Shown here one piece after another: positions 1 to 60,579 of a DNA stretch of 64,000 nucleotides; within the stretch, counting starts at the first letter, position 1; the number at the start of each line of letters is the position of its first letter. A model generated the notes under the pieces. That model was not told the DNA's origin. It saw nothing but the letters and a program-made list of their open reading frames with translations, and did not search any database. The translations under genes were made by a program, and so were the position numbers. Source of the stretch: Eledone cirrhosa (Eukaryota). The DNA lies in the NCBI GenBank assembly GCA_964016885.1, contig OZ024742.1, forward strand, positions 241,304,001-241,368,000, given 5' to 3'.

Positions 1-353
1 TGTGAAAGTGAGTGAGAGAGAGAGAGAGTGAGAGAGAGGGTGAGAGATTGGGAGAAAGAGTGTGTGTGTGTAGGAGAGTGAGAGAGAGAGTACGAGAGAG
101 AGAGTATGAGAGAGAGTGAGTGAGGGTGGGAGAGAGTGTGAGAGAGAGTGAGTGAGGGTGGGAGGAGTGGGAGATAGTGTGTGTGTGTGTCTGAAAAAGA
201 GAGAGAATGTATGAGAGAATTTGAGAGAGGGTGTGTGTGAAAGAGAGAGAGAGTGTGTGAGAGTGAGAGTGAGAGAGATGGTGAGAGAGTGTGTGAGAGA
301 ATGAGAGAGAGAGAGAGAAGTTGGGAGACATGGTGAGAGAGTGTGTGAGAGGT

Positions 354-411
<58 letters not shown>

Positions 412-808
412 TGAGAGAGTGCGTGAGAGGTTGAGAGAGAGAGAGAGAAGTTGGGAGACATGGTGAGAGAGTGTGTGAGAGGTTGAGAGAGAGAGATGGT
501 GAGAGAGTGTGTGAGAGAATGAGAGAGAGAGAGAGAAGTTGGGAGACATGGTGAGAGAGTGTGTGAGAGTTTGAGAGAGAGAGAGAGAGAGAGAGTGTGT
601 GAGAGGTTGAGAGAGAGAGAGAGATGGTGAGAGAGTGCGTGAGAGGTTGAGAGAGAGAGAGAGATGGTGAGAGAGTGCGTGAGAGGCTGAGAGAGAGAGA
701 GAGATGGTGAGAGAGTGTGTGAGAGGTTGAGAGAGAGAGAGAGAGTGCGTGAGAGAGTGTGTGAGAGGTTGAGAGAGAGAGAGAGAGATGGTGAGAGAGT
801 GTGTGAGA

Positions 809-849
<41 letters not shown>

Positions 850-890
850 TGAGAGAGAGAGATTGCGTGAGAGAATGAGAGAGAGAGAAA
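1..890. repeat. GA/GT-rich compound microsatellite with recurring unit GAGATGGTGAGAGAGTGTGTGAGAGGTT
   Basis: Unit recurs about 10 times between (GA)n runs. Confidence 0.9.
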
Positions 891-1295
891 CAGAAAAATC
901 AGTGTGAGTATGCGAGTGACTATTTATGAATGGTCTTCGAGTGTGAGAAAGAGTTGGAGTCAAATCGATAGACAAAGCTCAGTGTTAGAAGACAGAGTAA
1001 ATATGGAAGACAGATGCACTGATCCGTTGAACGGTCAGAGAGAGGGGCAGAAGTTGCAGACGATAGAACGTTAACTGTAATAACGAATGATAGATAGAGA
1101 GAAAGTAAGAGGTAAAGAGATAGATGAGATAAGAAAAAGCGCGGGAGATATCAAGTCAGAGAGAAGGGGTGGGTGGATGACAGAGAGAATGATAAAGAGT
1201 GAGAGAGAGAGAGAAAGAGGGGAGAGAGCGAATGATAGAGAGTGAGAGAGAGAAAGAAAGATAGAGAGTGAGAGAGAAAGATAGATAGATAGATA

Positions 1296-4200
1296 TGTTT
1301 CTTTATTAGCCACAGGAGCACAAAAGAAGGGGACAAATACAAAGGGGGAAGTTTACATACAACGTGTAAAATACTATCACAAATACAATTTAAAAGTTAA
1401 TCGATTTTCCCCAATAGGGGGAGACATTACATAATGGGTTACACATACCCCCGAAAAAAATGTGCAACCCTCATCTTCAGGAGTACGAAGAGTTTTTACC
1501 CCTTTCCTCTCCTCTTTTTCCTCAACCTACAAGCTGATATAGAGAGAAGGCCCATTCACTCGGGCCATTCTCGCCACTTTCACCCACCTTTCATAAAACT
1601 TGCTGGGGTACAGCACCTCTCTCTCCATCCTGATTCTTCTTCTAAAGTGGTATTTGAAAAAAAGAATCAGTTGTTGGACGGAGAGAAAGGTGTCTGACCT
1701 CTGCCCTTTCAACCTTGTCCACCATACAACCTCTTTCGCCATAGCTATCACACAAAGGAAGACCGCCCCTCCTTCGTTTTTGAAGGAGGGTGGCGGTTTG
1801 ATCATGATAATGGACTCGGTGGTCAACCGGATTGGAACCCCCCCCCCCCGCGACAATAGTCGTTCTACATAGCCCCACTGGTTGGTAACGCCCGGGCATT
1901 GTATGAATGCGTGCGCGACGGTTTCTTCGTCTCGCACACACCTCGGAGAGATCTTTTTTGCAGGGTCCCTGCCCGGGCGCCCATGTCTGTAGTGCTTGTC
2001 TCGAACTGGTAGAGCTCCTCGGTAGCACTGCCAGGCCAGGGACTTTTGGAAGTTGTCCATCGGTCCCGGGCGGAAGGTCCTACCGAACAGACTGGCCAGT
2101 TTGTCTTCTTCTACGCCTAGAATTTCACCGAGCGCATCGTCGCACTTGCTGCGGATCAACTCTCTATAGAATGACGAAGTGGAGTCTCCACTGATCGCCG
2201 GGTCCGCCTGCCAGAGGGCTGTGAGCGCCTGAGCACATTCGATGTGCCAGTCGCCCATTTTCCTTGGTCTTTTCTTGACCCAGGACTGCAGTTCTGTCAG
2301 CGAGACGAGTCGTGGGAAGGCTCGCCTCACGAACGGGGCCCACACCGGTTGTCCGGTGAGGAATACGTAGAGATGCCGCAGCCTGAGCGCGTGTTTGCGC
2401 ATCGTCAGCCACGGCATGCCCAGCCCCCCGTTGGAAGGGTGTTGGCAGCAGATGGATCTTCTCACCAAAGGAGCCCGCCTCTTCCAAGGGAATTTGAAGA
2501 GCGCGCGCTCCATTTTGGTGAGCGTTTTTGCTGGACACTATAAAAGTGTTCGCCACCTCCGCTCGACCTTTCAAGGATAGTTTTCACTCGGCCCACTTCT
2601 GGGTTAGTACAAACACCTTGGCCGTCACCTCGTTCCAGTTCTTCTCCACCTGGAGGTCCGCACCAAACCAGACCCCGAGCAGCTTTACCGGTCCTTCCGT
2701 CCAGCGTCCGACGACGCCATCGGAAGGCATCGGTTTGTCTCTCCACGATCCGAGTTGCAAACCAATGGACTTGTCCCGGTTCAGCTTCGCTCCTGTGAAC
2801 CTTTCGTATTCCTTCAGTAAGGTGCCGACTTTCTCGATTTACGAGGCGCTCGACACCATTACTGTCACGTCGTCGGCGTAGGCCGACGCGTTTTTCCGCA
2901 GTCCCGGTTCCAGAGGATGCCCTGCAATAGCTCCAACTTCCGCAGTAGTGGCTCGAGAGTCAGTACGTACAGAAGGGAGGAGAGAGGGCATCCCTGTCGA
3001 ATGGATCGCGTAATATGGAACGGCTCCGAGAGGTAGCCGTTCACCTTGACCCTTGAGCAGATGTTGCTGTTGTGCATTGTTGATCAGGCCTCCGAACCTA
3101 CCCTCTCTATGATGTATTGCATGAGATGGAGGCTGTCGTGTATGGACCTGGTCGGGATTGCGCATGTCTGCGCTTCTCCCACCAGGTTCTCGACGACAAG
3201 CGGCAGCCTCTTTGCCAACACCTTGGCCAAAATCTGTAACACTGTATTTAGCAGAGTTATGGGCCGGAAGTTGCCTATGTCATCCCCCTTATTCTCGTCC
3301 TTCCTGACTAGTGTGACTACGCCCTTGCCTGCAGAACTGGGAATTCTCCCGTTCTGATGCCAGTTGCAGTAGACCGCTTCCAGGAGACCGGAGAATAAGT
3401 GCGGCATTGCTACGTAAAATTCGTAGGGTAGACCGTCGAGACCTGGAGATTTGCGTATGCCGCATTGGCTCAGCGCGTCCCTCTATCTCAGCGGCTGAAA
3501 TCGGCTTTTCGCAGAACTTCGCCTCGCTGTCCGAGAGTCGCGGTAGGCCGTCGAGTTATGGACCGAAATCCATAGCCCCTCCCGGTGCGCCGCCCTGCCC
3601 GAACAGTTGAGCAAAGTGCTGCTGAAAGGCCGCACACATCTGCTTCGGCTCACGTGTCACGCGTCCGTCTTGGTCCTTCAAAACCGAATCGTGGACTTGT
3701 TGCCACATTTTGCCTCCGTCACTCGTGCCCAGCTAACAGCTTTGGCTCCCTCGTTTCCCACAGCACGTATTTTGCTTCTGACAACGCAGTCCTCGTACTT
3801 TGCGTCGAAGATCTGGTCCAAGGCTGTTCTCGTTGCTAGCACGCTGGCTACGTTGCCACTTCTAATTGCCTCTTCTACTTTAACTACCAGTTCCTTCTCG
3901 GTTCTATTTCTATCTAACGCTAATTTTTTACTAAAAACTATCGAGTCTAATCTAACTGCCCTCTTGAGAGAGTACCACCATCTGTTGTTGACAATGGCCT
4001 CTGTCAAGTGCGGTTTAACTAAAGTGCTAATCCGTCTACTGTAGGCTTTGCAAGTCGGTAACGACAAGTTCAGCTTCCAGTAGTCGGGTCCTTGTCTATG
4101 GGTTCTATCAAGGTTTACCATGCAGGTCACTAGTTTGTGATCTGAATAGGCAGCCATGAACATTTGTGGACAGCTTAACATGTCCCTATCCTTATTTTAA

Positions 4201-4304
4201 ATTAGAACCCTATCTAGGTACGATCTAGATGTTCCGCTGAGATTAGTCCACGTCCACAGTGGCACAGTCGGAAAATCTAGTCGATATCTATCGGCCAGGT
4301 CAAA
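1296..4304 (-). mobile_element. Tx1/L1-clade LINE copy A, 5'-truncated and decayed
   Basis: ORF fragments homologous to ORF2 of copy C (YSDHKLV, FRPITLLN, RQGCPLS, SAYADD, GGLG, WQCYRGALPV) with frameshifts and deletions; AATAAA at 1302-1307 (-); GATA tracts at 1280-1295 and 4306-4331. Confidence 0.93.
1527..4304 (-). pseudogene. Disrupted ORF2 (APE C-terminal part, RT) of copy A
   Basis: ORF pieces 3678-4181, 3084-3407, 2865-3077, 2839-3165 and 1527-2513 tile copy C ORF2 in different frames. Confidence 0.9.
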
Positions 4305-5008
4305 GTAGATAGATAGATAGATAGATAAATAGAGAAAGTGGGTGAGAGAGAAAGAAAGATAGAGAGTTAAAGAAAGAGAGAGAGTGAGAGAAAGAGAGAG
4401 AGTGAGAGGGAGAAAGAGAGAAAGTGGGTGAAAGAGAGAGAAAGATAGAGAGTGAGAGAGACAGAGAGAGAGAGAGGGGGGGGATGAATCAGCGCTTAAG
4501 AGTGAGAGAGATGAAGCGAAACGACTGGAGTGATGTGGCATGAATAGTAAATGAAAAGAGTTGGAGTACGGAGGAGGGGGAGTGGAGTAAGAACATGGCA
4601 GAAGACAGCGGAATAAGGTCTAGATTGAGACTAGGAAGACCAGACGGCAGAACGAAACGAAAGAGCGTGAAAGAGAGAGGGAGAGGGGGGGAGAGAGAAA
4701 GAGAGAAAGAGAGGCGAAAAAGAGAAAGAGGAAGAGAGGGCGAAAGGAAGAGAGATAGATGAAGGGGAAAGAGAGAGATAGAGAGAGAGAGAGAGAGGAA
4801 GAGAGTGAGAAAGAGGAAGAAAGAGAGAGAGAGAGAAAGAGAGAAATAGAGAGAGTATCTGTAGAGAGAAATATAAAACATACTATTGAAAGAAAGAAAA
4901 ACAAATATAAAATAGTTTTAGTAAGAAATTGGTGGTGTGGTTTAGAGAAATATTGACGGCGGTGGTGGCAGTGGAAATTGGAGTTTTCTTAACGTAAGAT
5001 TTGGTTAG

Positions 5009-5201
5009 GGCGGTGGATTGGCAGAATCGGTAGAGCGTCGGATACCCTGCTTCGCAGCATATAGTTACGTCGCTTTATTTTCTGAGTTCAAATCCCGCCG
5101 AGGTTAACTTTGCCTTTCATCCTTACGGGGTCGATAAAATAAAGTACCAGCAATGTACTGGGGTAATTGATGGCCTTGTGCCAAAAGTAGAAACAATTAT
5201 T
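5009..5201 (+). mobile_element. tRNA-derived SINE, family 1
   Basis: A-box-like TGGCAGAATCGG, B-box-like GAGTTCAAATCCC, body TTTGCCTTTCATCCTTACGGGGTCGATAAAATAAAGTACCAG, tail GCCTTGTGCCAAAAGTAGAAACAATTATT; at least 10 copies in the window. Confidence 0.88.
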
Positions 5202-5214
5202 TTAGGATAGATAA

Positions 5215-5408
5215 GGGTGGTTGATTGGCAGTATTGGTAGAGCGTCGGACACCATGCTTTGCAGCATGGAGTTTCGGCCCTTTACGATCTGAGTTCCAAT
5301 CCCGCCGAGTTTAACTTTGTCTTTCATCGTTATGGGGTCGATAAAATAAAGTACCAGTAATGCATTGAGATAATTGCTGGCCTTGTGCCAAAAGTAGAAA
5401 TAATTATT
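5215..5408 (+). mobile_element. tRNA-derived SINE, family 1 (second tandem copy)
   Basis: Same head, body and tail directly after the previous copy. Confidence 0.88.
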
Positions 5409-5680
5409 TTGCTTTTGAAGCCACCCTGTCATTCCTCATTGAATAGACCTTTGATCAAAGGACATTCAAGCCTTGATCAGATTCCGTCGTTTTAGTTGTG
5501 TCTACGAATACATTCCTTCGGTGATGTCCGTTTTCTTCTCTTTGGGGCACCATTTGAAGGGATTCTGATACGGTTTCCAGCTGATCGAGCGACTGTGTAG
5601 AGATTCCTTCACTGGCTGGAATGTAATGATTTAGAGAAGATAGACGTGCGGAAGGTTTTAGGAAAGACCTGAAAATCTGG

Positions 5681-5785
<105 letters not shown>

Positions 5786-5898
5786 TTTTAAATGTATGTT
5801 AGGATACGTTAGTTTGTATGGAAAAGCTCGTATGAGTGTGTGTGTATGTATATATATATATACACGTGTGTGTGTATGTATGTATCTATCTATCTATC

Positions 5899-6346
5899 GG
5901 TTTTCCTCTGTCTGGTGCCTATGGCGAAAGAGGTAATATGGTGGACGAGGTTAAAAGGACTGAGGGCAAACACCTTTCTCTCCGTCCAACAACTGATTCT
6001 TGTTTTTCAAACACCCCAGTAAATTCGCTGAAAGGTGGGTGAATGTGGCAAAAATGGCCCGAGTGAATGGGCCTTCTCTGTATATAAACCTGTAGATTGA
6101 GGAAGATAAACAAAGGGAAGACAGGAACACCTACAAAATGTGTTCCTGGTGCTGAGGGTGGTTCTATCCACGGGGTGTAAAACAACCCTGCAGTAACGTT
6201 CCCCCCTATTGGGGATTTCAATTGTTATTTTATTATATATAGTTTATTGTTATTTATTAATGTTAAAGTTATTTTTATGTAAAACCCCCGCCGTCACGTC
6301 TTGTAATGTCCCATTTTTGTACGCCCCAGTGGAAAATAAAGAAAGA
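5899..6346 (+). mobile_element. Tx1 3' stub S1 (ORF2 end and 3'UTR)
   Basis: VFLCLVPMAKEVIWWTRLKGL; AATAAA at 6335-6340; (TATC)n at 5883-5898 and 6347-6418. Confidence 0.9.
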
Positions 6347-6419
<73 letters not shown>

Positions 6420-6636
6420 CTCTTTCTGTCTGACGTGTGGAACATCGCCAGTAAGCTTTTTTGTTAATTTCTATGCAAAAAACCGAACTAATTGTTTGAA
6501 AAAACCTAACACTTTGTAGATTAACCCCATAGCTGAATTGTCAGCTGGGTGGTAATCCCATTTTTCGCCCCTGTAAGGGCGAACATTTTATTTTAAAAAT
6601 TTGTTTTAAAATATCAGATATTACAAACTAAATAAC

Positions 6637-8526
6637 TTGAACAACACAAGAACACTGGAGAACGTTAATAGAGAAAATAGAGAGAAAGAGGCAGATATTA
6701 ACGTTACATCCGCTTCTGCTACTATGGACGTCGCCATAGATACAAGTGTCAACAAAGAGAAAAATATATTAACACTTGAAAATTTTAAAATTTCTACCGT
6801 CGAAGCGGAGAAAAATAACAATAACACACAGGAAAACACAGGAATTAAACCCATTAACATACATACACATGAAAAAGACATCAACAACTCTACAGATACA
6901 TATACACATAATGTTTCACCTCGACAAGGAACTGAGATTTCCAACAACGATAACAACAACAACAACAGCAACACCACACAAAAAAACGAAAATGTCTTTC
7001 CCTGAAACAGTGAACAAAAAACAAGATTTTATAAATCTTGATATCTCCAACGCAAGAGATATGCTCCAGCAAGGGAGAAAATTTGTAACTTTCGAAGAAA
7101 GAGGTGGGTTTAGAATTAACTCACCCCTTGAAATAAAGGAAGACACAATCGGCAGATCAGTCACCTTTAGGACTGTGTCAAATTCCACAAGAAAGCCGAC
7201 ATTTGTTAACCAAGCAGATATAGAAGATACTTTCAAGGAAATTCTAGCAAATGTCGATTTTCTCCAGCGAGGAAAACAGTACGGAAGTGTTTCTGTACTT
7301 TTTAAAAGCGAGGCACTCGCCCCAAAAAACTCTGTGACACCAATAGTGTCAAAAGCATACACCTTTTTCCCTACGTACATGGGAAAAAGGGCACAAAAAA
7401 TAAAAATAAAAAACATACCTCCAAACATTAACATCTGGTGGATCTTGGCTGGCTTCGTAGAGCCAGAAACTGATATGATACTTTCGATACGAAAATCTAT
7501 TCGACAAAGATGGGCGGGCACATATTTGGAGATTCTGTTGCAAATGAAACCGGAGAGAATCTCCAAAATACCCGAAAGAGTCGTTATCGATAATAACAAC
7601 AAAATAAACATTTCGGAGAAGGACGAAAATTTCATTGCTTTCGCTGTGGTAGCACAGCACACCTAAAAGCCTCTTGTCCACAAACACACAACAACAACAT
7701 CATAACAAAAAAACGCTATTACCAACACCAACACCAAACAACCACCACCACCACAAGTACAACGACAGACGAAACGAGCAACCACACCAAAACAAACAGA
7801 CACTCAACCAACAACAACAGAAAAAACAGAGACAACACCCCTGAAGAACACAGCCCCACTCCATCAAACACTACCACAAACACACACACCGAAACACCAC
7901 CACCACACAACATATCCTTACCCCACACTCCTGACGATGATTATTCATCGACGGGTGAAGCTGCTTCTCCTTCTTTAAGTGAAGAAGAGGGAGAACCGCG
8001 GAAATCTAAAAGACAAAAAAAGAGACACCACAAAACCCCCAAAACTCCAATCACCAACACCAACACACAACCACAGACACAAACAACAACACAAACAACA
8101 CCACAGTCAAACATACCCCTACCAGCAAAACCAACACCAACACCATCCCAAACACAAGCACCCACCATAAAAAGAAAACTACCGGACGAACAACAAACTA
8201 AAACAACACAACAAAAACACAAACAACAATACCCATACATCAACACAAACAACAAGAGTTTGATGGCGGACATCTCCCCAAACCCCAAGGTGGAGACGGA
8301 GGATAAAACTTTCGTCAAGGCAGAATCGTCTCCACACCTTAAACTTATAAGGGTTTCTATGGAAACCTATAATGACCTAAAAAATAAATTTTCACAGGAC
8401 GTGGGCAACCCCTGCCACAAACCCATCAACAGCGTCCTGTTAAAATGTTTCCCCACCCCACCCAACACCCCATCCAGCACCCAAATGGAGATTGAACAAC
8501 CCGATCTCCAGGAAACGAAAAGGTAA
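6637..8526 (+). pseudogene. ORF1 of copy B, frameshifted
   Basis: Fragments 6637-7005, 6776-7666 and 8260-8526 match copy C ORF1 (PTYMG-R-QKIKI, DVG-PC--PIN-VLLK, MEI-QPD). Confidence 0.85.
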
Positions 8527-8567
8527 GTGCACCTTTCGTCCTTTTTCTCCAACTTTTCTTCACCAAC

Positions 8568-11500
8568 ATGGCTAGTTTACGAGTTGGAACCGTGAATGTG
8601 CGTGGCCTAGGGATGCCCTGGAAACAGGGCCAACTTTTAAACGACCTTAGGTTACACAGTATGGATGTGATAGCCATCACCGAGTCCAGGATCCACAACA
8701 GGCAGCAACTAACCCCCATCTTTGACGACTTTGAGATCTACGCATCTCTCTGTCAGCCAGGAGGTGGAGGTGGAGTGGCTGTCATGTTTCGGAAGAACCT
8801 GGACGTCGGAGTACAGCAAGTACACTTGGACCCGGAGGGTAGACTGGTAGTCCTAGACGTGAACAGTATCGGAGGTGGAGCCTTCAGTCTGGTGGCCGTT
8901 TATGCCCCGGCCGGGCAATCGCAATCACGGCCAGACTTCTTTAAGCGTCTAGAGTCTTTTCTGGGAACGTCTCGCTCCTTACTTTTAGTGGGGGACTGGA
9001 ATGGTATCCTAGATGCACGATGGGACTATGTGGCAGCAAGTCCCAGTAGAGCGGGGTGCAACAGCCTCAAAACTTTAATCGGCCAATTCCAACTGGCCGA
9101 TAGGTATCGACTGGAAATCCCGACTGCACCACAGTGGACGTGGGCAAACCGCAGTGGGACATCTAGATCGTATTTAGATAGGTTCTTCATTAGAGAAAGG
9201 GACAAGGAGATGTTAAGCTGTTCACGAATGCACATGGTTGCCTATTCAGATCACAAGTTAGTCGTCTGCTTAGTCAACCGTGATAGAATACATAGACAGG
9301 GTCCCGGATACTGGAAGCTGAACGTGTCGTTGCCGGCACGTAAAGCTTACAGTGAACGGATAAGTAGACTAGTCAAGCAACAGTTAACGGGAGCCATCGT
9401 CAACAATAGATGGTGGTACTCTCTCAAGAAAGCAATTAGAATAGAATCGATAGGGTATAACAGAGAGTTAGCCTTAGAAAAAAACAGAATAGAAAGAGAA
9501 CTAGTAGCCAAGGTAGAGGAGGCACTTAGAAGTGGCAACGCGGCTAGAGTGTTAGCGTAGAGAACGGCACTGGACCAGTTCTTCGATGTGAAACACGAAG
9601 GCTGCGTGGTCAGAAGCAGAACACGTGCTCTAGGAAACGAAGGAGCGAAAGCTGTCAGCTGGGCCTGAGTGGCAGAGGCAAAAAGTGGCAACAAGTCCAC
9701 GATTTGGTCTTTGAGAGACCAAAACGGACGCGTGCTACTTGACCCCAAGCAAATGTGCGTGACCTTTCAGCGGCACTTTGCGCGACTGTTTGAGCAGAAC
9801 GACGGTGAGCCGAACGGGGCAATGGCCTTTAGGTCATACCTCGACGGCCTGCCGCGTCTCTCGAACACGGACGCCGAGTTCTGCGAAAGACCGATCACGG
9901 ACACTGAAATACGGGACGCTCTGGGCCGCTGCGGGAAACGCAAGTCACCCGGTCTAGATGGTCTACCCTACGAATTTTACATAGGCATGCCGGACTTGTT
10001 CTCTGGCGTCCTCGAAGCCGTCTACTGCAATTGGCAGCAGAACGGGAGAATTCCCAGTTCTGCAGGCAAGGGCGTAGTAACGCTGATCAGGAAAGACGAG
10101 AACAAGGGGGACGAAATTAACAACTTCAGGCCCATAACTCTGCTCAAAATAGAGTTAAAGATTTTGGCCAAGGTGCTAGCGACGAGGTTGGCGCTTGTCG
10201 TCGAGAACCTGGTAGGGAAAGCGCAAACGTGTGCAATCCCGACCAGGTCCATACACGACAACCTCCACCTCATGCGATACATCATAGTGAGAGTGGGTAG
10301 TAAACCCGGCTTCGGTGGGGCTCTGATTAACTTGGATCAGTCTAATGCATTCGATAGGGTCGACCATCGATACTTGGAAGCGGTTCTCAAGGCGGCCGGT
10401 TTCGGTCCCGTGTTCAGAGGATGGATCGAGGCGATGCACACCAGCATCTGCTCGAGTGTCAAGGTGAACGGCTATCTATCGGAGCCGTTCGCAAAAACGC
10501 GTTCCATTCGACAGGGGTGCCCTCTCTCCTCCATTCTGTATGTATTGACTCTAGAGCCACTACTGCGGAAATTGGAGCTGTTGCGCGGCATCCCTCTAGA
10601 ACAGGGACTGCGGAAAGCGGCGTCGGCTTATGACAACGACGTGACGGTAATGGTGTCGAGCACCTCGGAAATCGGGGTGATCGGCAACTTACTCAAAGAA
10701 TACGAAACGCTGACGGGAGCAAAACTAAACCCGGACAAGTCTGTCGGTTTGCAACTCGGTACGTGAATAGGCAAACCGATGACGTCCGACAGCGTCGTTG
10801 GACGCTGGACGGACGGACCGGTGAAATTGCTCGGGGTCTGGTTCGGTCCAGACCTCCAGGTGGAGAAAAACTGGAACGAGGTCACGGCCAAGGTGTTTGC
10901 ACTCACCCAGAATTGGGCAGAGTGCAAACTGTTCTTGAAAGGTCGAGCGGAGGTGGCGAACACTTTCATAGCGTGCGCCATCTACTACCTCTTGACTGTC
11001 GTGCCTTGCCCCCGTGAACACCTCGCCAACATGGAACGCATGCTCTTCCATTTTCTGTGGAAGGAGCAGGCTACGCTGGTGAGGAGATCCGTCTGCTGTC
11101 AGCACCCTTCCAACGGAGGGCTGGGAATGCCGTGGCTGATGATGCGCAAACATGCGCTGAGGCTGCGGCATCTCCAGGTATTCCTCAGCGACCCCCAACC
11201 GGTGTGGGCACCGTTTGTGAGACATGCTTTCCCACAGCTCGTCTCGCTGACGGAGCTGCAGTCCTGGGTGAAGAAAAGACTGAAAACGATGGGCGCCTGG
11301 CACATTGAATGCGCTCAGGCGCTCACAGTCCTCTGGCAAGCGGACGCAGAAATCAGTGGAAACTCCACTTCGACATTCTATAGAGGGATTGTACCTTACA
11401 AGGGCGGCGACGTGCTCGGAGAGACTCTGGGCGTCGAAGACGATGAGCTCACCAGTCTGTTTGGTAGGACTTCTGGCTGGGACCTATGGACAACTTCCAG

Positions 11501-12002
11501 AGGTCCCTGGCTTGGCAGTGATACCGAGAAGCTCTACCGGTTCGTGACAAGATCTACAGGCACGGACACTCCGGCAGGGATCCTTCCAAGAGGACGTGTC
11601 CAAGATGCGCGCAGGACATTGAAACAGTCCTGCACGCAATTGTACACTGCCCGGGCGTGACCGACCTGTGGAACTATGCAGAACAACTGCTGTCGGGTAT
11701 GGGACAAATCCAGTTGACTGCCGAGTCCATAGTAAGGATCAGAGCGCCAGCCTCTTTCAAAACGAAAGAGAGGCTGTACAGTGGCTATGGTGAAAGAGGT
11801 TATATGGTGGACGAGATTGAGAGGACTGAGGACAGATGTCTTTCTCTCCGGACAACAATTGATTCCCTTCTTTAAGTATCACTTTAGAAGGAGAATCAGG
11901 GTGGAGAGAGAGGCACTGCACCTCAGTAAATTTACTGAAAGGTGGGTGAATGAAGCGAAAATGGCCCGAGTGATTGGGCCTTCTCTCTTTATAAGCCTGT
12001 AG
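8568..12002 (+). pseudogene. ORF2 (APE-RT-CCHC) of copy B, disrupted
   Basis: GDWN, YLDRF, SDH; in-frame stops at 9558, 9666 and about 10764; YADD changed to YDND; C-terminal frameshifts. Confidence 0.92.
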
Positions 12003-12561
12003 GTTGAGGAAGAGAGCAAAAGGAAGAAAGGAGCACTTGCACAACACGCTCCTGGAGTTGAGGGTTGTTCTATCGACGGGGTATTAAACAACCCATTTGT
12101 GGCGCCTCCCCCCTATTGGGGATTTCGATTGTTGTAATTGTCTGTTTTTATATTTTTACACGACTGTATGTAAAATCCCCGGCATGTCTTTGTATTGTCC
12201 CCTTTTCTTGTGCGCCCTTGTGTGTGTTTATGTACGTCTGCAAGGAAAGCAAACAGAAGAAATTGAAAGAATGAGAGTAAAAAGATAAAGAAAGAGAGAA
12301 AGAATTAATGAAAGAATAAAAATAAAACAAATGACTGAGTGAGGGAGAAAGACAGCAAATCATAAACAAAAACAAAACAAAACTAAAAGAAAGAAATGGC
12401 ACAACATTATGGAGTAAAACTTGTATTTCTTTATCGGTATGAATGGGAAAAGAAAGAGAAAAGGAGGGAACGAGAAAGAGAGATAAGTAATGGAATGATA
12501 TATGGATAGAGATAGACAGATACTGATAGATAAATTGATAGACAGATAGATAGATATCTTC

Positions 12562-12595
<34 letters not shown>

Positions 12596-12677
12596 CTGGG
12601 CCCGCGTGACAGAGGCCAACAGTGGAACTAAATCCACCATCCGGTCTTTGCGAGACCTGGATGGACGGGCGATTCTT

Positions 12678-12709
<32 letters not shown>

Positions 12710-13025
12710 TCTTTCTTTATTTGATAGATAGATAGATAGATAGATAGATAGACAGATAGATATATTTCTTTTATTTGCCACTAGGGCATCAAAAGTGGGA
12801 CAAGTACAAAGGGGGGAGTTTACACAAAAAGGCGTCCTCAATAAGGAGGAGGCAATAACAAAATATAAAAATAAAATAAGATATAACAAAAAATAAAATT
12901 TTTAACAAAATCCTCAATAGAGAGGAGGCGCCTTGGGGGGTCGCACACACCCCCGAAAAAGTGTGCAACCCTACTCCTCAGGAGCACAGAGAAGGGGTGC
13001 TCCCTTGGTCTTTCATCTTCCTCAC

Positions 13026-16000
13026 CTATAGTCTGATGTAGAGTGAAGGCCCATTCACACGGGCCATTCTCGCCACTTTCACCCATCTTTCATAGAAACG
13101 GCTGGGGTGCAGCACCTCTCTCTCCATCCTGATCCTTCTTCCGAAATGATATCGGAAGAAACGGACCAGTTGTTGGCCAGAGAGAAAGGTGCCCGACCTC
13201 AGTCCTTTCAGACGCGTCCACCATACAACCTCTTTCGCCATGGCTATTACGCACAGAAACACCGCCTCTGCTTCATCTTTGAAGGGGGGAGGCGGCTTGA
13301 TCATTACAATAGACTCGGTGGTCAACCGGATCGGTCCCACCCTTGACAGCAGTTGTTCGACATAGCCCCACAGATCGGCTACGCCCGAGCAGTGTACCAA
13401 TGCGTGTGCAACGGTTTCCTCGTCGCACACGCATCTGGGACAGATCTTTTTGGCGGGGTCCCTACCCGGGCGCCCGTGTCTGTAGAGCCTTTCTCGAACG
13501 GGTAAAGCCCCTCGGTAGCACTGCCAGGCCAGGGACTTCTGGAAGTTGTCCATAGGTCCCGGGCTGAATGTCCTACCGAACAGGCTGGCCAGTTCGTCCT
13601 CCTCCATGTCTAGGGCTTCTCCGAGGGCGTCGTCGCACCTGCTGCGTACCAGCCCTCTATAGAATGTTGCGGTGGAGTCTCCACTGATAACCGGATCCGC
13701 CTGCCAGAGGGCGGTGAGCGCCTGGGCACACTCAGTGTGCCAGGCGCCCAGTTTTCTCGGTCTTTGCTTGACCCAGGATTGCAGCTCGGTGAGTGAGACG
13801 AGTCTGGGAAAGGTTCGTCTCACAAACGAGGCCCACACCGGTTGTCCGGTGAGGAATACGTAGAGGTGCCGTAGCCTTAATGCGTGTTTACGCATCATTA
13901 GCCACGGCATCCCCAGCCCTCCTTTCGAAGGGTGTTGACAGCAGATGGATCTCCTCACCATAGGAGCCCGCCTCTTCCAAAGGAATTGGAAGAGCGCGCG
14001 CTCCATCTTGGTGAGGGTTTCCCTTGGGCAGGGCACTACGGTCAGGCGGTAGTAGATGACGGACGCTATGTAGGTGTTCGCCACCTCCGCCCGACCTTTC
14101 AGGGATAGTTTGCAACTGGCCCACTTCTGGGTCAGTGCAAACACCCTGTTCGTAACCTCCGCCCAGTTTTTCTCCACCTGGAGGTCCGGTCCGAACCAGA
14201 CCCCGAGCAACTTCACCGGGCCCTCCGTCCAGCGTCCGACGACGCCATCGGAGGGCATCGGTCTGCCCCTCCACGTGCCGAGTTGCAAACCGATCGACTT
14301 GTCCCGGTTCAGCTTAGCCCCTGTGAACTTTTCGTACTCCTCCAGTAAGGTGCCGACCGCCTCGATTTCGGAGGCCGTCGACACCATTACTGTCACGTCA
14401 TCGGCGTAGGCCGACACCGCTTTCCGCAATCCCGGTTCCAAAGGGATGCCCTGCAACAACTCCAACTTCCGCAGTAGTGGCTCGAGAGTCAACACATACA
14501 GAAGGGAGGAGAGAGGGCACCCTTGTCGGATGGACCGCGCGATTTTGAACGGCTCCGAGAGGTAGCCGTTCACCTTGACCCTAGAGCAGATGCGGCTGCT
14601 GTGCATAGCAGTGATCCAGCCCCTGAAAACGGGTCCGAAGCCTGCCGCCGCTAGCACCGCATCCAGGTAACCATGGTCGACCCTATCGAACGCCTTAGAT
14701 TGATCCAAGTTGATCAGAGCCCCACCAAAGCCGGGTTCGTTCCCAACCCTCTCTATGATGTATCGCATGAGGTGGAGGTTGTCATGGATGGACCTGGACG
14801 GGATAGCGCATGTCTGCGCATCTCCCACCAGGTTGCCCACGACAAGCGCCAACCTCTTTGCTAGCACCTTGGCCAAAATCTGTAACTCTGTATTTAGCAG
14901 TGTTATGGGCCTGAAGTTACTTATTTCGTCCCCCTTGTTCTCGTCCTTCCTCACTAGCGTGACTACGCCCTTGGTCACAGTACAGGGAATTCTCCCGTTC
15001 TGTTGCCAGTTGCAGTAGACCGCCTCGAGGAGATCGGGGAACAAGTCCGGCATAGCTAGATATAATTCGTAAGGAAGACCATCGAGACCCGGGGATTTGC
15101 GTTTGCCGCATTGGCTCAGCACGTCCTCTATCTCAGCGGCCGAAATCGGCTCCTCGCAGGACTTCGCCTCCCTGTCCGAGAGGCGCGGCAGGCCGTCGAG
15201 GTATGGACCGAAGTCCACGTTCCTAACCGGCTCCCCGCCCCTCCCGAACAGTCGGGCAAAGTGCCTTTGAAAGGCCTCACACATCTGCTTAGGCTCAAGA
15301 ATCGCCCGTCCATCCAGGTCTCGCAAAGACCGGATGGTGGATTTAGTTCCACTGTTGGCCTCTGTCACGCGGGCCCAGCTAACAGCTTTGGTCCCCTCGT
15401 TCCCTAGAGCACGTATTTTACTTCGGACAACGCAGCCTTCGTGCTTCGCGTCGAAAAACTGGCTCAAAGCCGTTCTCGACGCTAGCACTCTGGCCACGTC
15501 GCCGCTTCTAATTGCCTCTTCTACTCTATCTATTAGCTCCCTTTCCTTCCTATTCCTATCCGCAGCTAGAACCTTACTAAATTCTATCGAGACTACTCTA
15601 ATCTCTCTCTTTAGAGATACCCACCACCTGCTGTTGACGATCGCTCCAGTCAACCGTTCCTTAACTAACGTACTAATCCGATTCCTGTAGGCTCTACTTG
15701 CCGGCAAGGACAAGTTGAGCTTCCAGTAACCGGGGCCCTGTCTATGAGTTCTGTCAAGGTTGACCATGCAGGTCACTAATTTGTGGTCTGAATAGCCAAC
15801 AATGCGCATTTTTGGACAACTTAAAAAGTCCTTATCCTTAATTCTAACTAAGAACCTATCTAGGTACGACCTAGATGATCCGCTACGATTTGCCCAAGTC
15901 CAGGTTGGCGCAGTCGGAAAATCTAGTCGATATCTATCGGCCAGGTCAAATCGACCGATTAACCCTTTGAGGCTATTACACCCCTCTCTATCGGGGCAGG

Positions 16001-16463
16001 CCCCTACGTAGTCCCAGCGTGCATCTAGGATACCATTCCAGTCCCCCACTAATAGCAAGGAGCGGGACGTCCCTAGAAAAGTCTCCAGACGATGGAAGAA
16101 GTCCGGCCGCATTGACCCGAAAGGGCCGTAGGCGGCTACCAACCTAAACGCTCCGCCTTTACCACTGCCAAGGTCCAGAACCACTAGTCGACCCTCCGGG
16201 TCCAAATGTACCATCTGTGTTGCGAGACCCAGATGTTTTTGCAGCAGAACGACAACTCCACCCCCACCTCCGGGCTGACAGAGAGATGCGTGCATCTCAA
16301 AGTCATCAAAGGTGGGGGCCAGCTGTCGCACGTTGCTGATCCGGGCCTCGCAAATAACCATCACATCTATACGTTGTGACCTGAGGTCATTTAGAAGCAT
16401 TGCTTGCTTCCAAGTTGAGCCCAGGCCACGCGCATTTAAACAGCCTACTCTTAGCATAGCCAT
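13026..16463 (-). CDS. ORF2p: APE endonuclease, reverse transcriptase, C-terminal CCHC; 1145 aa from ATG at 16463
   Basis: LNARGL, GDWN, SYLDRF, SDH; KSPGLDG, FRPITLLN, LDQSKAFDRVDH, RQGCPLS, AYADD, GGLG; CPRC..ETVAHALVHC. CCAACATGG start context is shared by four copies. Confidence 0.96.
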   Translation of the reverse strand: MAMLRVGCLNARGLGSTWKQAMLLNDLRSQRIDVMVICEARISNVRQLAPTFDDFEMHASLCQPGGGGGVVVLLQKHLGLATQMVHLDPEGRLVVLDLGSGKGGAFRLVAAYGPFGSMRPDFFHRLETFLGTSRSLLLVGDWNGILDARWDYVGACPDREGCNSLKGLIGRFDLADRYRLDFPTAPTWTWANRSGSSRSYLDRFLVRIKDKDFLSCPKMRIVGYSDHKLVTCMVNLDRTHRQGPGYWKLNLSLPASRAYRNRISTLVKERLTGAIVNSRWWVSLKREIRVVSIEFSKVLAADRNRKERELIDRVEEAIRSGDVARVLASRTALSQFFDAKHEGCVVRSKIRALGNEGTKAVSWARVTEANSGTKSTIRSLRDLDGRAILEPKQMCEAFQRHFARLFGRGGEPVRNVDFGPYLDGLPRLSDREAKSCEEPISAAEIEDVLSQCGKRKSPGLDGLPYELYLAMPDLFPDLLEAVYCNWQQNGRIPCTVTKGVVTLVRKDENKGDEISNFRPITLLNTELQILAKVLAKRLALVVGNLVGDAQTCAIPSRSIHDNLHLMRYIIERVGNEPGFGGALINLDQSKAFDRVDHGYLDAVLAAAGFGPVFRGWITAMHSSRICSRVKVNGYLSEPFKIARSIRQGCPLSSLLYVLTLEPLLRKLELLQGIPLEPGLRKAVSAYADDVTVMVSTASEIEAVGTLLEEYEKFTGAKLNRDKSIGLQLGTWRGRPMPSDGVVGRWTEGPVKLLGVWFGPDLQVEKNWAEVTNRVFALTQKWASCKLSLKGRAEVANTYIASVIYYRLTVVPCPRETLTKMERALFQFLWKRRAPMVRRSICCQHPSKGGLGMPWLMMRKHALRLRHLYVFLTGQPVWASFVRRTFPRLVSLTELQSWVKQRPRKLGAWHTECAQALTALWQADPVISGDSTATFYRGLVRSRCDDALGEALDMEEDELASLFGRTFSPGPMDNFQKSLAWQCYRGALPVRERLYRHGRPGRDPAKKICPRCVCDEETVAHALVHCSGVADLWGYVEQLLSRVGPIRLTTESIVMIKPPPPFKDEAEAVFLCVIAMAKEVVWWTRLKGLRSGTFLSGQQLVRFFRYHFGRRIRMEREVLHPSRFYERWVKVARMARVNGPSLYIRL

Positions 16464-16487
16464 GTTGGTGGTGAAGAGAAAAGGCAC

Positions 16488-18269
16488 TTACCTCTCTGCG
16501 TCCCGGGTATCGGGCTGCACAATTTCCATTAGGGTGGGGGATGGGTTGTTGGGTGGGGTGGTGGTTTGTGAAAGTGTGGGGGCATCAGTGTGTTGTGTGG
16601 TTGGGGAGCTTGGAGTTGTGAGGGTGTTTGGGGAGGGGGTGGGATAGTTTTTTAGGAGGACGCGGTTAATGGGCCCGACGCAGGGGGGACCCACGTCCTC
16701 TTTAAAATTGTTTTTTAAAGTTTTATAGGTGTCCTGTGGGGCCTTAATCATTTTGAGGTGGGGGAAATCCCCTGCCTGGGTGAAGTTAGGCCCTTGTGTT
16801 TTTATTAGATTGTTGTTGTACACAATGTTTAACAGTTTTTTGTTTCTTGTATTTATGTATGTGTATGCATGTTTTTGTTTTTGTGTGGTGTTTTTTGTTT
16901 GCTGTTGTGAGCTCTTTTGTGTTGGTGTCAGTGTTATGTTTTGGGGAGGGGTTTTTTTCATTTGTGTGTCTGAGGTGTGTTTTCTTTTTTTTCTTTTGAT
17001 TGTGTGGAAGTGCTCCTCCTCGTCTGACGACGAACTAGGGTCATCTTCCGCGTTGGAGGGGAGGGGTATATTTTCGGGTTGTGTTTGCGGTACGGGTGTT
17101 TTGGAAATTGTTTTTGTTTTTTGAGTGGAGGGGATGGGTTGGACATTGTTTTGTTTTGGTTTAAGCTGTGGTGGTTGTTTTTGTAGTGGTAGTTGTGGTG
17201 ATTGTGTTGGTTGTGCAGCTGTTGGTGGTGTAAGCAGGATTGGGGTTTTCTTATTAAGTTGGGGACAGACAGCCCTCAGGTGACCTCTGGTTCCGCAGAG
17301 GTAACACGAGGGCCGTCTACCCTCAACGGTAATGTTGATGAAGGTTAGATCATCCAGTATGACGCGTTCAGGGATCTGGGCGATCCTTTCGGGCCTCATT
17401 TGAACTACAAGTTCGAGGCTCGTTCCACTGAACGCGTCACCCGATGCCTTTCCCATGGACACCAGCATGTCATCCTCCAGGTCCAGAAAACCTGTCAAAA
17501 CCCACCATATGTCCATAATCGGCAGGATGGTGTGGATTTTTATTTTTTGTGTTCTTCTACCCATGTACGTAGGGTAGAAGGTGTATGCGGTGGATGTGAT
17601 TGGTTTGATGGACAGTTTCACTGCTGTGTCCCTGTCCTTCATGAGAATGGATAGACTCCCGTAGAGTCTATCCTTCTGAATGAAGGTGATGTCCTTCATG
17701 ACGTCTTTTAAAACCAGCTCTATCTCGCTCTGTGATGGTTGAGCTGGTTTTTTACTTTTGTTCGAGATTGTCCTAAACATGACCGTGTTTAGGAGTCTCT
17801 GGCTTTTTAGTTCCGGGGAGGAATGGATTGTGAATGAACCATTTTCCCCGTACACTATATATTTTTTCGCATCCGCCAGTAGCTCCTTCGCTTTTGTTAT
17901 ATCTACTGGCAGATAGTCGAGGGTTTTCCTTGTCGTCTCGGCGAAGGAGAAATTTCGTTTGTTTGTGTTGTTGTTGTCGTTGGTGGTGTTGTTGTTATCA
18001 TTGTTGTTGTTGTCACCGTTATTGGTCTTGTTGTTGTTATTGTTATTGTTATTGGTGTTGTTTTCGTCCGTCGCATTGTTGTTGTTGTTGCTGTTGCTGC
18101 TTTGGGTTGTTGCCATGGCAACGTCAAGTTGTCGGTTAACAGGTGGAGAGAATTCTTCCTCTGGCTGACCTATCTTCTTGACCTCTGCTACTGTGACAGT
18201 GGCAGGGGGAAGCTGTAAGTTCATCTTCCCCTTTCCTCCTTCGAATTTTGGTGAAGAAGCTTCGGCCAT
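16488..18269 (-). CDS. ORF1p (gag-like nucleic-acid-binding protein), 593 aa
   Basis: CX2CX4HX4C knuckle CYLCGTRGHLRAVC; N-rich and P/T/Q-rich tracts; lies upstream of ORF2; homologues in copies B, D, F and G. Confidence 0.9.
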   Translation of the reverse strand: MAEASSPKFEGGKGKMNLQLPPATVTVAEVKKIGQPEEEFSPPVNRQLDVAMATTQSSNSNNNNNATDENNTNNNNNNNNKTNNGDNNNNDNNNTTNDNNNTNKRNFSFAETTRKTLDYLPVDITKAKELLADAKKYIVYGENGSFTIHSSPELKSQRLLNTVMFRTISNKSKKPAQPSQSEIELVLKDVMKDITFIQKDRLYGSLSILMKDRDTAVKLSIKPITSTAYTFYPTYMGRRTQKIKIHTILPIMDIWWVLTGFLDLEDDMLVSMGKASGDAFSGTSLELVVQMRPERIAQIPERVILDDLTFINITVEGRRPSCYLCGTRGHLRAVCPQLNKKTPILLTPPTAAQPTQSPQLPLQKQPPQLKPKQNNVQPIPSTQKTKTISKTPVPQTQPENIPLPSNAEDDPSSSSDEEEHFHTIKRKKRKHTSDTQMKKTPPQNITLTPTQKSSQQQTKNTTQKQKHAYTYINTRNKKLLNIVYNNNLIKTQGPNFTQAGDFPHLKMIKAPQDTYKTLKNNFKEDVGPPCVGPINRVLLKNYPTPSPNTLTTPSSPTTQHTDAPTLSQTTTPPNNPSPTLMEIVQPDTRDAER

Positions 18270-18517
18270 TTAAAAAATATTGACTTTTCAACAAGAAAAA
18301 ACTTTTTTTTTTTAACTATTTCGCCTAAAGGCGTAGAATATTTTGAGAGACTGACCAGATCAAAGTTTGACCTGGCAGTCCCTCTACAAAATGGTACAAA
18401 AATTAAAGTTATCAGACAAGAATTTCTATAGAAATTTAAACAGAACTTACTCAGCAAGTTATACGCGTGTGTCCATAGGTAAATAGATAGACAGATAGAT
18501 AGATAAATAGATAGATA

Positions 18518-18618
18518 TCTTTCTTTATTTGCCACAAGGGCGTATAAAAATGGGACATTACAAGACGTGACGGCGGGGGTTTAACATGTAAAATACATAA
18601 AAGCTTTAACATCAACAA
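18518..18618 (-). mobile_element. Tx1 3' stub S2 (same 3'UTR type as S1)
   Basis: Reverse complement CCCCGCCGTCACGTCTTGTAATGTCCCATTTT..GCCCTTGTGGCAAATAAAGAAAGA-(TATC)n matches 6286-6346. Confidence 0.88.
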
Positions 18619-18808
18619 ATAATAATTGTTTCTACTTTTGGCACAAGGCCAGCAATTATCCAGTGTATTACTGGTACTTTATTTTATTTTATCGACCCCG
18701 TAAGGATGAAAGGCAAAGTTATCCTCGGCGGGATTTGAACTCAGAATGGCAAGGGCCGTAACTCTATGCGTCAAAGCATGGCGTCCGACCCTCTACCGAT
18801 ACTGCCAA
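18619..18808 (-). mobile_element. tRNA-derived SINE, family 1
   Basis: Reverse complement of the family 1 sequence. Confidence 0.87.
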
Positions 18809-18820
18809 GGAGGATGAAGC

Positions 18821-19430
18821 AGTGAGATTGAATGAGAGAGAGAGAGAGGGGGCGAGAGAGAGGGGGCGAGAGAGAGGGGGGGGGGGGTGTTTGAGAGAAA
18901 GGAGTGGGGGAGAACAATCTTGAGTGTGAGTGTTGTGTGGAGAATGAAACAGTGAGATTGAATGAGAGAGAGAGAGAGAGGGCGAGCGAGAGAGAGAGAG
19001 TGTTTGAGAGAAAGGAGTGAGGGAGAACAATCTTGAGTGTGAGTGTTGTGTGGAGAATGAAACAGTGAGATTGAATGAGAGAGAGAGAGAGAGGGCGAGC
19101 GAGAGAGAGAGAGAGTGTTTGAGAGAAAGGAGTGAGGGAGAACAATCTTGAGTGTGAGTGTTGTGTGGAGAATGAAACAGTGAGATTGAATGAGAGAGAG
19201 AGAGAGGGCGAGCGAGAGAGAGAGAGAGTGTTTGAGAGAAAGGAGTGAGGGAGAACAATCTTGAGTGTGAGAGTTGTGTGGAGAATGAAACAGTGAGATT
19301 GAATGAGAGAGGGAGAGAGGGCGAGCGAGAGAGAGAGAGTGTTTGAGAGAAAGGAGTGAGGGAGAACAATCTTGAGTGCGAGTGTTGTGTGGAGAATGAA
19401 ACAGTGAGATTGAATGAGAGAGAGAGTGAG
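18821..19430. repeat. Minisatellite, about 118-bp unit x5
   Basis: Unit GTGTTTGAGAGAAAGGAGTGAGGGAGAACAATCTTGAGTGTGAGTGTTGTGTGGAGAATGAAACAGTGAGATTGAATG(AG)n. Confidence 0.92.
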
Positions 19431-20619
19431 AGGGGCGATAGAGAGGGGAGAGAGAGGCTGAAAGACAGAGAATTAGTAGATTTTTCTTTGAGTTTTGAGT
19501 GAAGAAGGTAAAAATGAGACAGTCGTAGAGATCTGAGTGAGTGAGAGACACAATGAGTGAGAGGGAAAGAGAAAGCGAGAGAGAGTGAGAGCGGGAAACA
19601 GTTGAAAGAGATAGAGAGGGTGCATGGCAAAGAACGAGAGAAAAGGAGAATGAGAATGCGTATAAGAAAGCTGGAGAGAAGAGGAAAGAGAAACGGAGAG
19701 AGAGAGAGTGTGTAAATTCTTTTTAGTATTGTTTGAGGGAGGAAAATATGAGACAGCCTTAGAGATGAGACGCTGAATGAGAGAGAGTGTGCGTGATATA
19801 GAACATAACATCGAGAGAGAGAGAGAGGGTGAGAGAGAGGGGCAGTGGAGTAAGAGAGACAAACAAAGTGAGATAATGATTGAGAGAGATGGTGAGAGAA
19901 ACCAAAACAGAAGGAGAGAGAGAGAGGGGGGGGGGGTTCTGCGTTTGCGTCTTGTTTCAAGAAGAGAAGAATTACAGACCTACAGAGTGAGTGAGAAGTA
20001 GGAAAGATACAAAGTAAGAGTGTGAGTGGAGAGAGCGAGTGACTGGGGGGAAGAGAGAGAGGAGAGAGAGAGGGGGGAGAGAGAGGGTGATATAGAGGGG
20101 AAGAGAGGAGGGAAGAGAGGGGGGAGAAAGGGGAAGAGATAGATAATGAGAAGCGGAAAATACATAAATAGGGGGAGAGAGAGAGGGGAAGGGGGAAATA
20201 GGGAGAAAGGGAGAGGGGGAAAAAGAGTGAGATAATGAATTAATGAGAAAATACAGAGAAAGGGAACAAAGAGCGAGAGAGAGAGAGAGAAAGAGCGAGA
20301 GAGAGAGACAGAGAGAGAGTGAGAGAGAGGGAGTGGGAGAGGGCGAGAGAGAGAGAGTGGTTAGAGCGAGAGAGAGAGAGCGAGAGAAAGCGAGAGAGAG
20401 AGACAGAGACAGAAAGAGAGATAGATATAGACAGAGAGAAAGAGGGCGCGCGAGAGAGAGAGAGAAAGGGAAGGAAGGTGTAAGCAATGAAGATAACATT
20501 AAATTGGAGGAAGCAGAACTATTAGAAACAAAGTTAAGCAAGACAGCATAGCTGTATAGTATAAAGGAGGGAATGAAGAAATAAGGAAATAGATGAAAAC
20601 AGATATGTAAGATGGATAG

Positions 20620-43814: not shown

Positions 43815-44013
43815 TTAGTAGAATCGATAGAGCATCGGACACTAAGCTTCGCGGAATAGTTACGTCCCTTTACGTTCTGAGTTCAAATCCCGTCGAGGTT
43901 AGCTTTACATTTCATTCTTACGGGCTAGATAAAATAAAGCACCAGTAACGCACTGGGGTCGATTTACTCAACTTTCTCGTCCCCCAAAATGCTGGCTTTG
44001 TGCCTATAATAGA
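43815..44013 (+). mobile_element. Family 1 SINE, longer variant
   Basis: Family 1 body plus GGGGTCGATTTACTCAACTTTCTCGTCCCCCAAAATGCTGGC before the tail. Confidence 0.82.
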
Positions 44014-44037
44014 AATAATAATAATAATAATAATAAT

Positions 44038-49227: not shown

Positions 49228-49250
49228 ATAATAATAATAATAATGATGAT

Positions 49251-52200: not shown

Positions 52201-52449
52201 AGCCAGAAAAACTTCCAGACGCCTAAAGAAGTCCGGTCGTCTGGCCCCGGTAGAGGCGTAGACGGCTAGCAGTCTAAAGACACCACCTTCGCTATTGTTC
52301 ACATCCAGGACCACCAACTTACCGTCCGGGTCTCGGAAGATCGACCTTACCTCGAGATCCAGGCCTTTCCTAAACAGTACTGCTACCCCACTTCTCATTC
52401 CCGGCCTGCTAACAGATGCGAAGATCTGATAGTCGTCGAAAATGGGGGC

Positions 52450-52450
<1 letters not shown>
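49251..52450 (-). mobile_element. Tx1 copy E, 5'-truncated and decayed; same subfamily as G
   Basis: ORF2 fragments incl. SAYADD; 3'UTR closely matches 60200-60481; (ATT)n at both ends. Confidence 0.92.
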
Positions 52451-52498
<48 letters not shown>

Positions 52499-52500
<2 letters not shown>

Positions 52501-52600
52501 TTTCTTTATTGGCCACAAGGGCTGACATCAAGAAAAACATTACAGACGGCACAGGACGGCACAGGACGGTACGATGTGGGTTTTGTGCGTGTAAATATTT

Positions 52601-52602
<2 letters not shown>
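52499..52602 (-). mobile_element. Tx1 3' stub S3 (D-type 3' end)
   Basis: Matches 44040-44135; AATAAA present; (ATT)n on both sides. Confidence 0.85.
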
Positions 52603-52656
<54 letters not shown>

Positions 52657-52671
52657 TATTATTATTATTAT

Positions 52672-60481: not shown

Positions 60482-60503
60482 ATTATTATTATTATTATTA
60501 TTA

Positions 60504-60579
60504 GGGATCGATAGAATAAAGTACCAGTGGTACACTGGATAATTGCTGGCCTTGTGTCAAAAGCAGAAACAATTATTAT
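60504..60579 (+). mobile_element. Family 1 SINE 3' fragment directly after the (ATT)n tail of G
   Basis: GATAGAATAAAGTACCAG..GCTGGCCTTGTGTCAAAAGCAGAAACAATTATT. Confidence 0.8.

Follow-up and report, generated by a model that had tools for sequence, protein, structure and literature searches.

A young L1-group retrotransposon family of Eledone cirrhosa that inserts at TATCT motifs and GATA repeats

Several Tx1 families of non-LTR retrotransposons have been described as targeting microsatellites, including Kibi, (TC)n, and Koshi, (TTC)n, of teleosts and the crocodilian Tx1-1_Crp group, (TTCC)n/(TTTC)n (PMC4494074, PMC3812793), and the relevant section of PMC4494074 calls a LINE microsatellite-specific when more than 20% of its flanks share a sequence type. 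Sequence-specific nicking has been reported for the Tx1L endonuclease, Tx1L-EN (PMC1950540). How an APE endonuclease gains or switches microsatellite targeting is poorly understood, according to the discussion of it in PMC3812793. L1-Tx1 elements are listed for cephalopods in PMC13282606 and PMC8967140, whose passages on them do not describe a target.

Analyses of the window (the whole 64,000-nucleotide stretch of Eledone cirrhosa DNA under study) identified five LINE pieces, a 3'-end stub and an inverted fragment between positions 1280 and 18618. A preliminary description had portrayed these as a single head-to-tail stack. One continuous stack was rejected, as the elements fall into three separate landing sites: A (minus strand), S1 with B (plus strand), and the fragment, stub, C and S2 (minus strand). 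Element A (1297-4304, minus strand) is a 5'-truncated, frameshifted LINE retaining ORF2 residues about 180-1153, and belongs to an older TATC subfamily about 82% identical to C. It is bounded on the same strand by (TATC)4 at its 3' junction (1280-1296) and by (TATC)5-6 at its truncated 5' junction (4305-4333), the latter within a GA-rich low-complexity tract. On the plus strand, (TATC)4 (5883-5898) forms the 5' junction of S1 (5899-6346), a short 5'-truncated copy with the ORF2 C-terminus and 3' UTR, and (TATC)18 (6347-6418) is both the 3' flank of S1 and the 5' flank of the near full-length element B (6419-12222), in which ORF1 and ORF2 are broken by stops and frameshifts. The 3' end of B has neither AATAAA nor TATC, its last bases having been lost, and stops at a short TG run near 12222.

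The third landing site, on the minus strand, has at its distal end a degenerate and perfect (TATC)n tract (12510-12594), followed by an inverted 83-bp internal piece of a C-family ORF2 (12595-12677, plus strand) that is 100% identical to C and lies between two TATC tracts with 2-4 nt microhomologies. Next come (TATC)8, the 13-14 bp stub of a 3' end (12710-12722), (TATC)7 and the 3' copy of a 19-bp duplication (12744-12762), together spanning 12678-12762, and then the full-length, intact element C (12763-18476). C encodes a 593-residue ORF1 (16488-18269) and an ORF2 (13026-16463) with APE endonuclease, reverse transcriptase (RT) and zf-RVT regions. Beyond it lie the TATC tail of S2, with the 5' copy of the duplication (18483-18501) and 6 filler bases (18477-18517), and S2 itself (18518-18610), an about 95-bp 3' end of the S1 subfamily that is 86% identical to S1. 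The 5' end of S2 adjoins the ATT tail of a SINE (18611-18808, minus strand), not TATC. The two copies of the 19-bp duplication indicated that C had inserted into the tail of S2.

All of the features listed in the preliminary description were recovered. In the orientation of each element, the 3' ends of A, S1, C, S2 and the stub have the form AATAAA-(A)GAAA-NN-(TATC)n and lack poly(A). On the 5' side, A, whose truncation point lies in the endonuclease, as well as S1, B and C, adjoin (TATC)n on the same strand; B begins in the tail of S1, and C in that of S2. The TATC flanks are not due to chance, as TATCTATC occurs in only 0.11% of 79,714 background windows of 30 nt taken from 400 kb spread evenly across the genome. 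Since A, B and C are different subfamilies with only 77-82% DNA identity, the stack is not a duplication. No joint for an empty site of window 1-20000 was among the joints listed from other runs (there were 664 more), and Rfam gave no match in the same interval.

A few other features of the window were recorded. A 1,619-base piece from a run with another species label (X4) matches 16401-18016 with 7 differences and 3 gaps, and could represent a close relative, a mislabel or a transfer. A 113-bp tandem repeat of 5.3 copies (93% matches) occupies 18854-19456. A decayed coding-like stretch at 62600-64000 resembles by eye a Penelope RT with a GIY-YIG nuclease; a Pfam search of two frames gave no support for such a remnant.

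The family to which C belongs is very young. C is 98.8-99.9% identical to its best genome-wide copies, the best 40 genome matches to its 3' end are 99-100% identical, and exact pattern counts across the genome gave 1,974 C-type 3' ends and 385 heads. Similar exact counts for the sister subfamilies gave 7,443 TATC-followed 3' ends, and 0 for the reversed control. Pfam identified Exo_endo_phos, RVT_1 and, below its cut-off, zf-RVT in ORF2 of C. The nearest solved protein is human L1 ORF2p (PDB 8sxt; E 1e-48 over the endonuclease and RT), with R2 at 3.5e-19, and the endonuclease domain alone gave no PDB match at E 0.001. The 3' ends folded no better than shuffled sequences (z -0.3 to -0.8).

By its APE endonuclease, RT and C-terminal zinc motif, the C lineage belongs to the L1 group of non-LTR retrotransposons, which comprises the L1 and Tx1 clades. 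It has further L1-group traits in a separate ORF1, 5' truncation, with truncation points spread along the element, and variable target duplications of 8-25 bp. A gag-like ORF1 with a CCHC knuckle is a feature of the Tx1 clade. ORF1 of C gave a weak zf-CCHC match (E 0.051, below the Pfam cut-off), with the motif visible at residues 321-337. Membership of the C lineage in the Tx1 clade is plausible; the 15 homologues compared included no named Tx1 reference (Tx1L, Kibi, Koshi or Keno).

The 3' junctions revealed which sequence the family lands on. After the 1,974 C-type 3' ends, NN-TATCT followed in 1,672 (85%), NN-TATAT in 246 (12%) and other sequences in 56; in the position-ordered sample TATAT was found at 8 of 30 C ends. 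In 400 kb sampled from 40 evenly spaced places in the genome, TATAT was 18 times commoner than TATCT and yet it is used less, which corresponds to a per-site preference for TATCT of about 120-fold. The older A subfamily had TATCT at 24 of 29 3' ends. In the control lineage D it was found at 0 of 29, with ATTAT at 26 of 29. No poly(A) was found in any of the 52 C copies with both ends in view. The unit that is recognised is a short motif, TATCT and more weakly TATAT, and not the microsatellite as such, as judged from the empty sites described below. C copies ending GAAA-CT (often about 98.3% identical) seemed to lie in TATAT more often than GAAA-TA copies among L261-L290, possibly through a drift in specificity between subfamilies.

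For the 5' ends we studied the 100 best-scoring copies (L001-L100) and the first 30 by position on contig 1 (L261-L290), from which we removed two internal-deletion junctions, the inverted fragment and a junction bordering an N gap; this left 75 distinct junctions, all from copies with at least 98% identity to C. The preliminary description held that TATC would be enriched at such junctions, and so it proved: TATCT lay within 30 nt of the junction in 29 of 34 truncated copies, against 3.7% of the 79,714 background windows, although independence is incomplete in these samples, which are ranked by query likeness or position and include copies from a shared locus. TATCTATC was found within the same distance in 23 of the 34. 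The five truncated junctions without TATCT comprised three in (TA)n, one that joins the 3' end of another element and one with an inverted copy of its flank. Full-length heads had TATCT in 40 of 41 cases, and the opposite-strand GATAGATA occurred at 1 of the 75 junctions. TATCT was present at 13 and absent from 6 of 19 5' junctions of the A subfamily (nine alignment breaks having been dropped). Lineage D had TATCT at 0 of 11 and ATTAT at 8 of 11.

Some individual junctions were unusual. At L055:250-445 the TATC flank upstream of the 5' junction is repeated in inverted orientation together with its interruptions, a fold-back event. Twice, at 12595-12677 of the window and near the 5' junction of L034/L091, a short internal piece of C lies inverted between TATC tracts and shows microhomology; such pieces look like products of twin priming, in which priming started at the second nick and the forward product is almost absent. 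The C copies L021, L072, L078 and L012 lie within short satellites whose unit contains TCTAT, one of which holds two insertions 11 kb apart.

Target duplications could be fixed where the flank soon leaves the repeat, which was the case for 16 of 52 copies, judged by eye from 28 script matches; the other 36 lie in repeats too pure for the duplication to be resolved. The 16 resolvable duplications measured 8-25 bp, microhomology included, and in 14 of them the duplication starts at the T of TATCT, two bases past the GAAA of the element. They reach into unique sequence on both flanks, and in none of the 16 copies were added 3' repeat units needed to account for the junction.

An empty allele was found for L066 as a 601-nt contig (run X2) that runs from one flank directly into the other and matches their 223 + 378 bases perfectly; this single contig has a depth of 5 in one run, possibly comes from the assembled sample, and represents either an allele or an identical paralogue. 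Before insertion the site had a single TATCT and no repeat; in the occupied site an 8-bp duplication is present without a tail, and the head carries 15 additional bases of (CTAT)n-TGGG. L074 lies in a dispersed repeat, and in 28 of 29 empty paralogues of that repeat TATCT is present at the same place, with at least three units in 3 of 29. A pre-existing TATC target, which the preliminary description had expected at empty sites, was thereby found in the form of TATCT at the one empty allele and 28 of the 29 empty paralogues. Its proposal of a GATA-repeat-specific lineage stood as regards TATC targeting and was refined as regards the repeat itself, since three or more units preceded insertion at 0 of 1 allele and 3 of 29 paralogues. 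The empty allele and the L074 paralogues together indicate that the motif is the target, and that GATA arrays are where this motif is densest. The repeat at the 3' end is target and not tail.

The dispersed repeat hosting L074 is young (L074:3700-4210, L231-L260), 40 of 40 listed matches being identical over 156 bases. Repeats of this type end in TATCT + (TA)n and host the C insertions L074, L094 and L096.

Full-length and truncated copies differed at the 5' junction. In the five full-length resolvable copies, 15-27 bases lie between the duplication and the body of the element, consisting of 2-5 TATC-like units followed by TGGG; the 11 truncated resolvable copies have at most 4 extra bases. 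These sequences would most simply be explained by transcription beginning within the upstream repeat, with the head imported as part of the RNA; slippage during 5' joining would be an alternative.

Based on the landing at TATCT and the 8-25 bp duplications, we consider it quite probable that C inserts by target-primed reverse transcription, started by endonuclease cleavage of the GATA strand opposite the motif. The APE domain would nick the GATA strand first, opposite TATCT, and the freed ...ATAGATA-3' end would pair with the AUAUCU end of the RNA just past AAUAAA; with priming at this position, poly(A), if made, would not be copied. A second nick would fall 8-25 bp away, and 5' joining would be helped by repeat homology. 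Transcription would start inside the upstream repeat, with the 5' end of the RNA carrying 2-5 units to the new site, and the duplication and head import would leave fresh target on both sides, which we propose feeds stacking and can seed a repeat from a single motif. The lineage would have switched from an ATT target, with an Ile/Met-to-Ser change at the tip of the endonuclease hairpin as candidate determinant. The specificity is loose: TATAT takes 12% of ends, TATCT is missing from 5 of 34 truncated junctions and from 6 of 19 A-subfamily junctions, and S2 abuts an ATT tail.

Other explanations of these junctions were weighed. Were the repeat a templated tail, as in CR1, L2 and I, the 5' TATC would have to come from template jumps or from survival in low-complexity DNA. 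Repeat tails after the poly(A) signal are indeed known in other clades from the element descriptions in PMC4758252 and PMC3747384, and full-length heads do carry element-borne TATC. However, TATCT was there before insertion in the empty allele of L066 and no further copy is gained at the 3' junction on filling, the duplications reach beyond the repeat into unique sequence on either side, (TA)n is used far less despite being far commoner, and copies of the D lineage have no TATC; a mere tail was rejected, and we regard it as highly improbable. Segmental duplication, recombination or assembly error at repeats might be invoked for the stacks, as the region is low-complexity and one junction, that of L016, resembles a product of recombination at a shared 3' motif. 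Against this origin, for which we see very little chance, stacked neighbours are different subfamilies with 77-86% identity, and other neighbours, such as the three in a row at L283-L285, differ in truncation point and have their own duplications.

A different division of labour between enzyme and RNA would be one in which nicking is loose and AT-rich, only nicks that pair with the UAUC end of the RNA are extended, and the RNA tail changed first in the switch from ATT to TATC. Consistent with this, the 3' end of each lineage matches its own target, TATAT is tolerated at 246 of the 1,974 ends, pairing between the RNA 3' end and the target is raised as an added filter in a passage of PMC1950540, and I and UnaL2 are described as ending in repeats in the portion of PMC3747384 that covers them. 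Yet the duplication is preceded by only about 2 bases of the element, units were added in none of the 16 resolvable copies, the lineages have different residues at the hairpin tip, and Tx1L-EN alone nicks its own target specifically in the experiments reported in PMC1950540, so we think selection by pairing alone unlikely. Because nicking choice by the enzyme and RNA-primer pairing both predict a match to the RNA end, the junctions do not separate them, and both may act. Sequence-specific nicking on the GATA strand is the reading that we carry forward.

Stacking was common genome-wide, with 26 of the 75 C junctions lying directly in the TATC tail of another element. The genome contains 53,610 starts of (TATC)3+ arrays, of which 8,515 (at least 16%) are 3' ends of elements, so stacking exceeds the tail share of arrays about twofold (binomial P 5e-5), a rough figure because the two patterns differ in strictness and arrays were not weighted by length. 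At L283-L285, three consecutive copies have one and the same two-unit site as their duplication; target can therefore be regenerated by duplication alone. The earlier suggestion that clusters grow on themselves is upheld by S1-B, S2-C-stub and the 26 copies; it does not extend to the nearness of A or of the ATT cluster 25 kb away.

That cluster (44030-60502) served as a comparison set and consists of the sister LINEs E, F and D with fragments, stacked with (ATT)n flanks and the same 3' layout; these relatives are about 70% identical to the TATC elements in DNA. In an RT tree of 21 rows, with unnamed outgroups only and broken-copy rows pieced together, the five TATC rows formed a clade (100/100) that grouped with the ATT elements D, F and L190 (99/99), apart from the ATT elements E and L172. 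This nesting among ATT elements suggests that the TATC target was derived from an ATT target.

A SINE is abundant here (5007-5410, 18611-18808, 43830-44020 and 60503-60580), and at 5007-5410 (plus strand) is present as two tandem copies with a Tx1-like 3' end and an ATT tail, not TATC. Its last ~30 bases resemble the LINE 3' end, reading GGCC-TTGTG-CC...GAAA and then ATT repeats. The SINE occurs in ATT tails of D-lineage copies and vice versa, which makes the ATT lineage its likely partner.

The hairpin loop of C reads T-W-A-N-R-S-G-S-S-R-S and has the length of the L1 loop. N-R-S-G was found in C, B and two A-type copies and N-L-S-G in A, with N-R-I-G or N-R-M-G in four ATT copies and, by eye, N-R-T-G in F. 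The variable residue aligns with P197 of L1-EN, which the structural account in PMC1950540 places at the hairpin tip; loop grafts are reported there to change nicking preference, and point changes not to have altered the specificity of L1-EN. The Ile/Met-to-Ser change is, from this one evolutionary contrast, a candidate determinant of the switch from ATT to TATC.

Young intact TATC elements and their ATT relatives coexist in this genome, where thousands of insertions record target choice and one named residue is open to testing. Through this family LINE activity is linked to where GATA microsatellites arise and lie in the genome, a point of importance for marker design and repeat annotation. 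We speculate further that the LINE makes its own habitat, recognising a 5-bp motif, being transcribed inside a GATA repeat and seeding or extending GATA arrays, with the switch made by one hairpin-tip change; this wider idea is tentative and, taken as a whole, rather unlikely.

Among the known systems, human L1 has target duplications similar in size to those of C, and its ORF2p is the best solved relative of C over the endonuclease and RT. L1 copies a poly(A) tail and primes on T-tracts, whereas C had poly(A) in 0 of 52 copies and has an ORF1 with a weak CCHC knuckle. Waldo, Mino, Dong and Togen are of the R1 clade, or of R4 and NeSL-like clades with a restriction-like nuclease. They likewise target microsatellites, (ACAY)n, (AC)n, (TAA)n and (TG)n respectively (PMC3812793, PMC4640811), that of Waldo being a tetranucleotide. 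Both clade and repeat differ from those of C. Tx1L of Xenopus resembles C in its two ORFs, APE endonuclease and sequence-specific insertion, and differs, in the descriptions of it in PMC4494074 and PMC1950540, in targeting a site in the Tx1D transposon and in an 11-residue hairpin loop, the loop of C having L1 length.

Kibi, Koshi and the Tx1-1_Crp group are, as portrayed in their published descriptions, APE-type L1-group non-LTR elements that each use one microsatellite class, with sister families on different repeats, as in the C lineage. The C family well exceeds the 20% of flanks cited above (85% of 3' ends and 23 of 34 truncated 5' junctions, with the opposite strand at 1 of 75). With its flank enrichment, fixed orientation and a motif present before insertion, and with nicking predicted, the C lineage appears to work like Kibi and Koshi. 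C was rejected as Kibi or Koshi proper, its junctions starting at TATCT or TATAT in 1,918 of 1,974 cases and not in (TC)n or (TTC)n. A LINE targeting GATA/TATC was not found in the literature searched, whose scope was article text, and figure labels, supplements, Repbase or Dfam may list such a target. The targets given for Kibi, Koshi and Tx1-1_Crp in those descriptions are pure pyrimidine runs, whereas the C lineage uses TATCT/(GATA)n, has an (ATT)n sister and has a single motif as its minimum.
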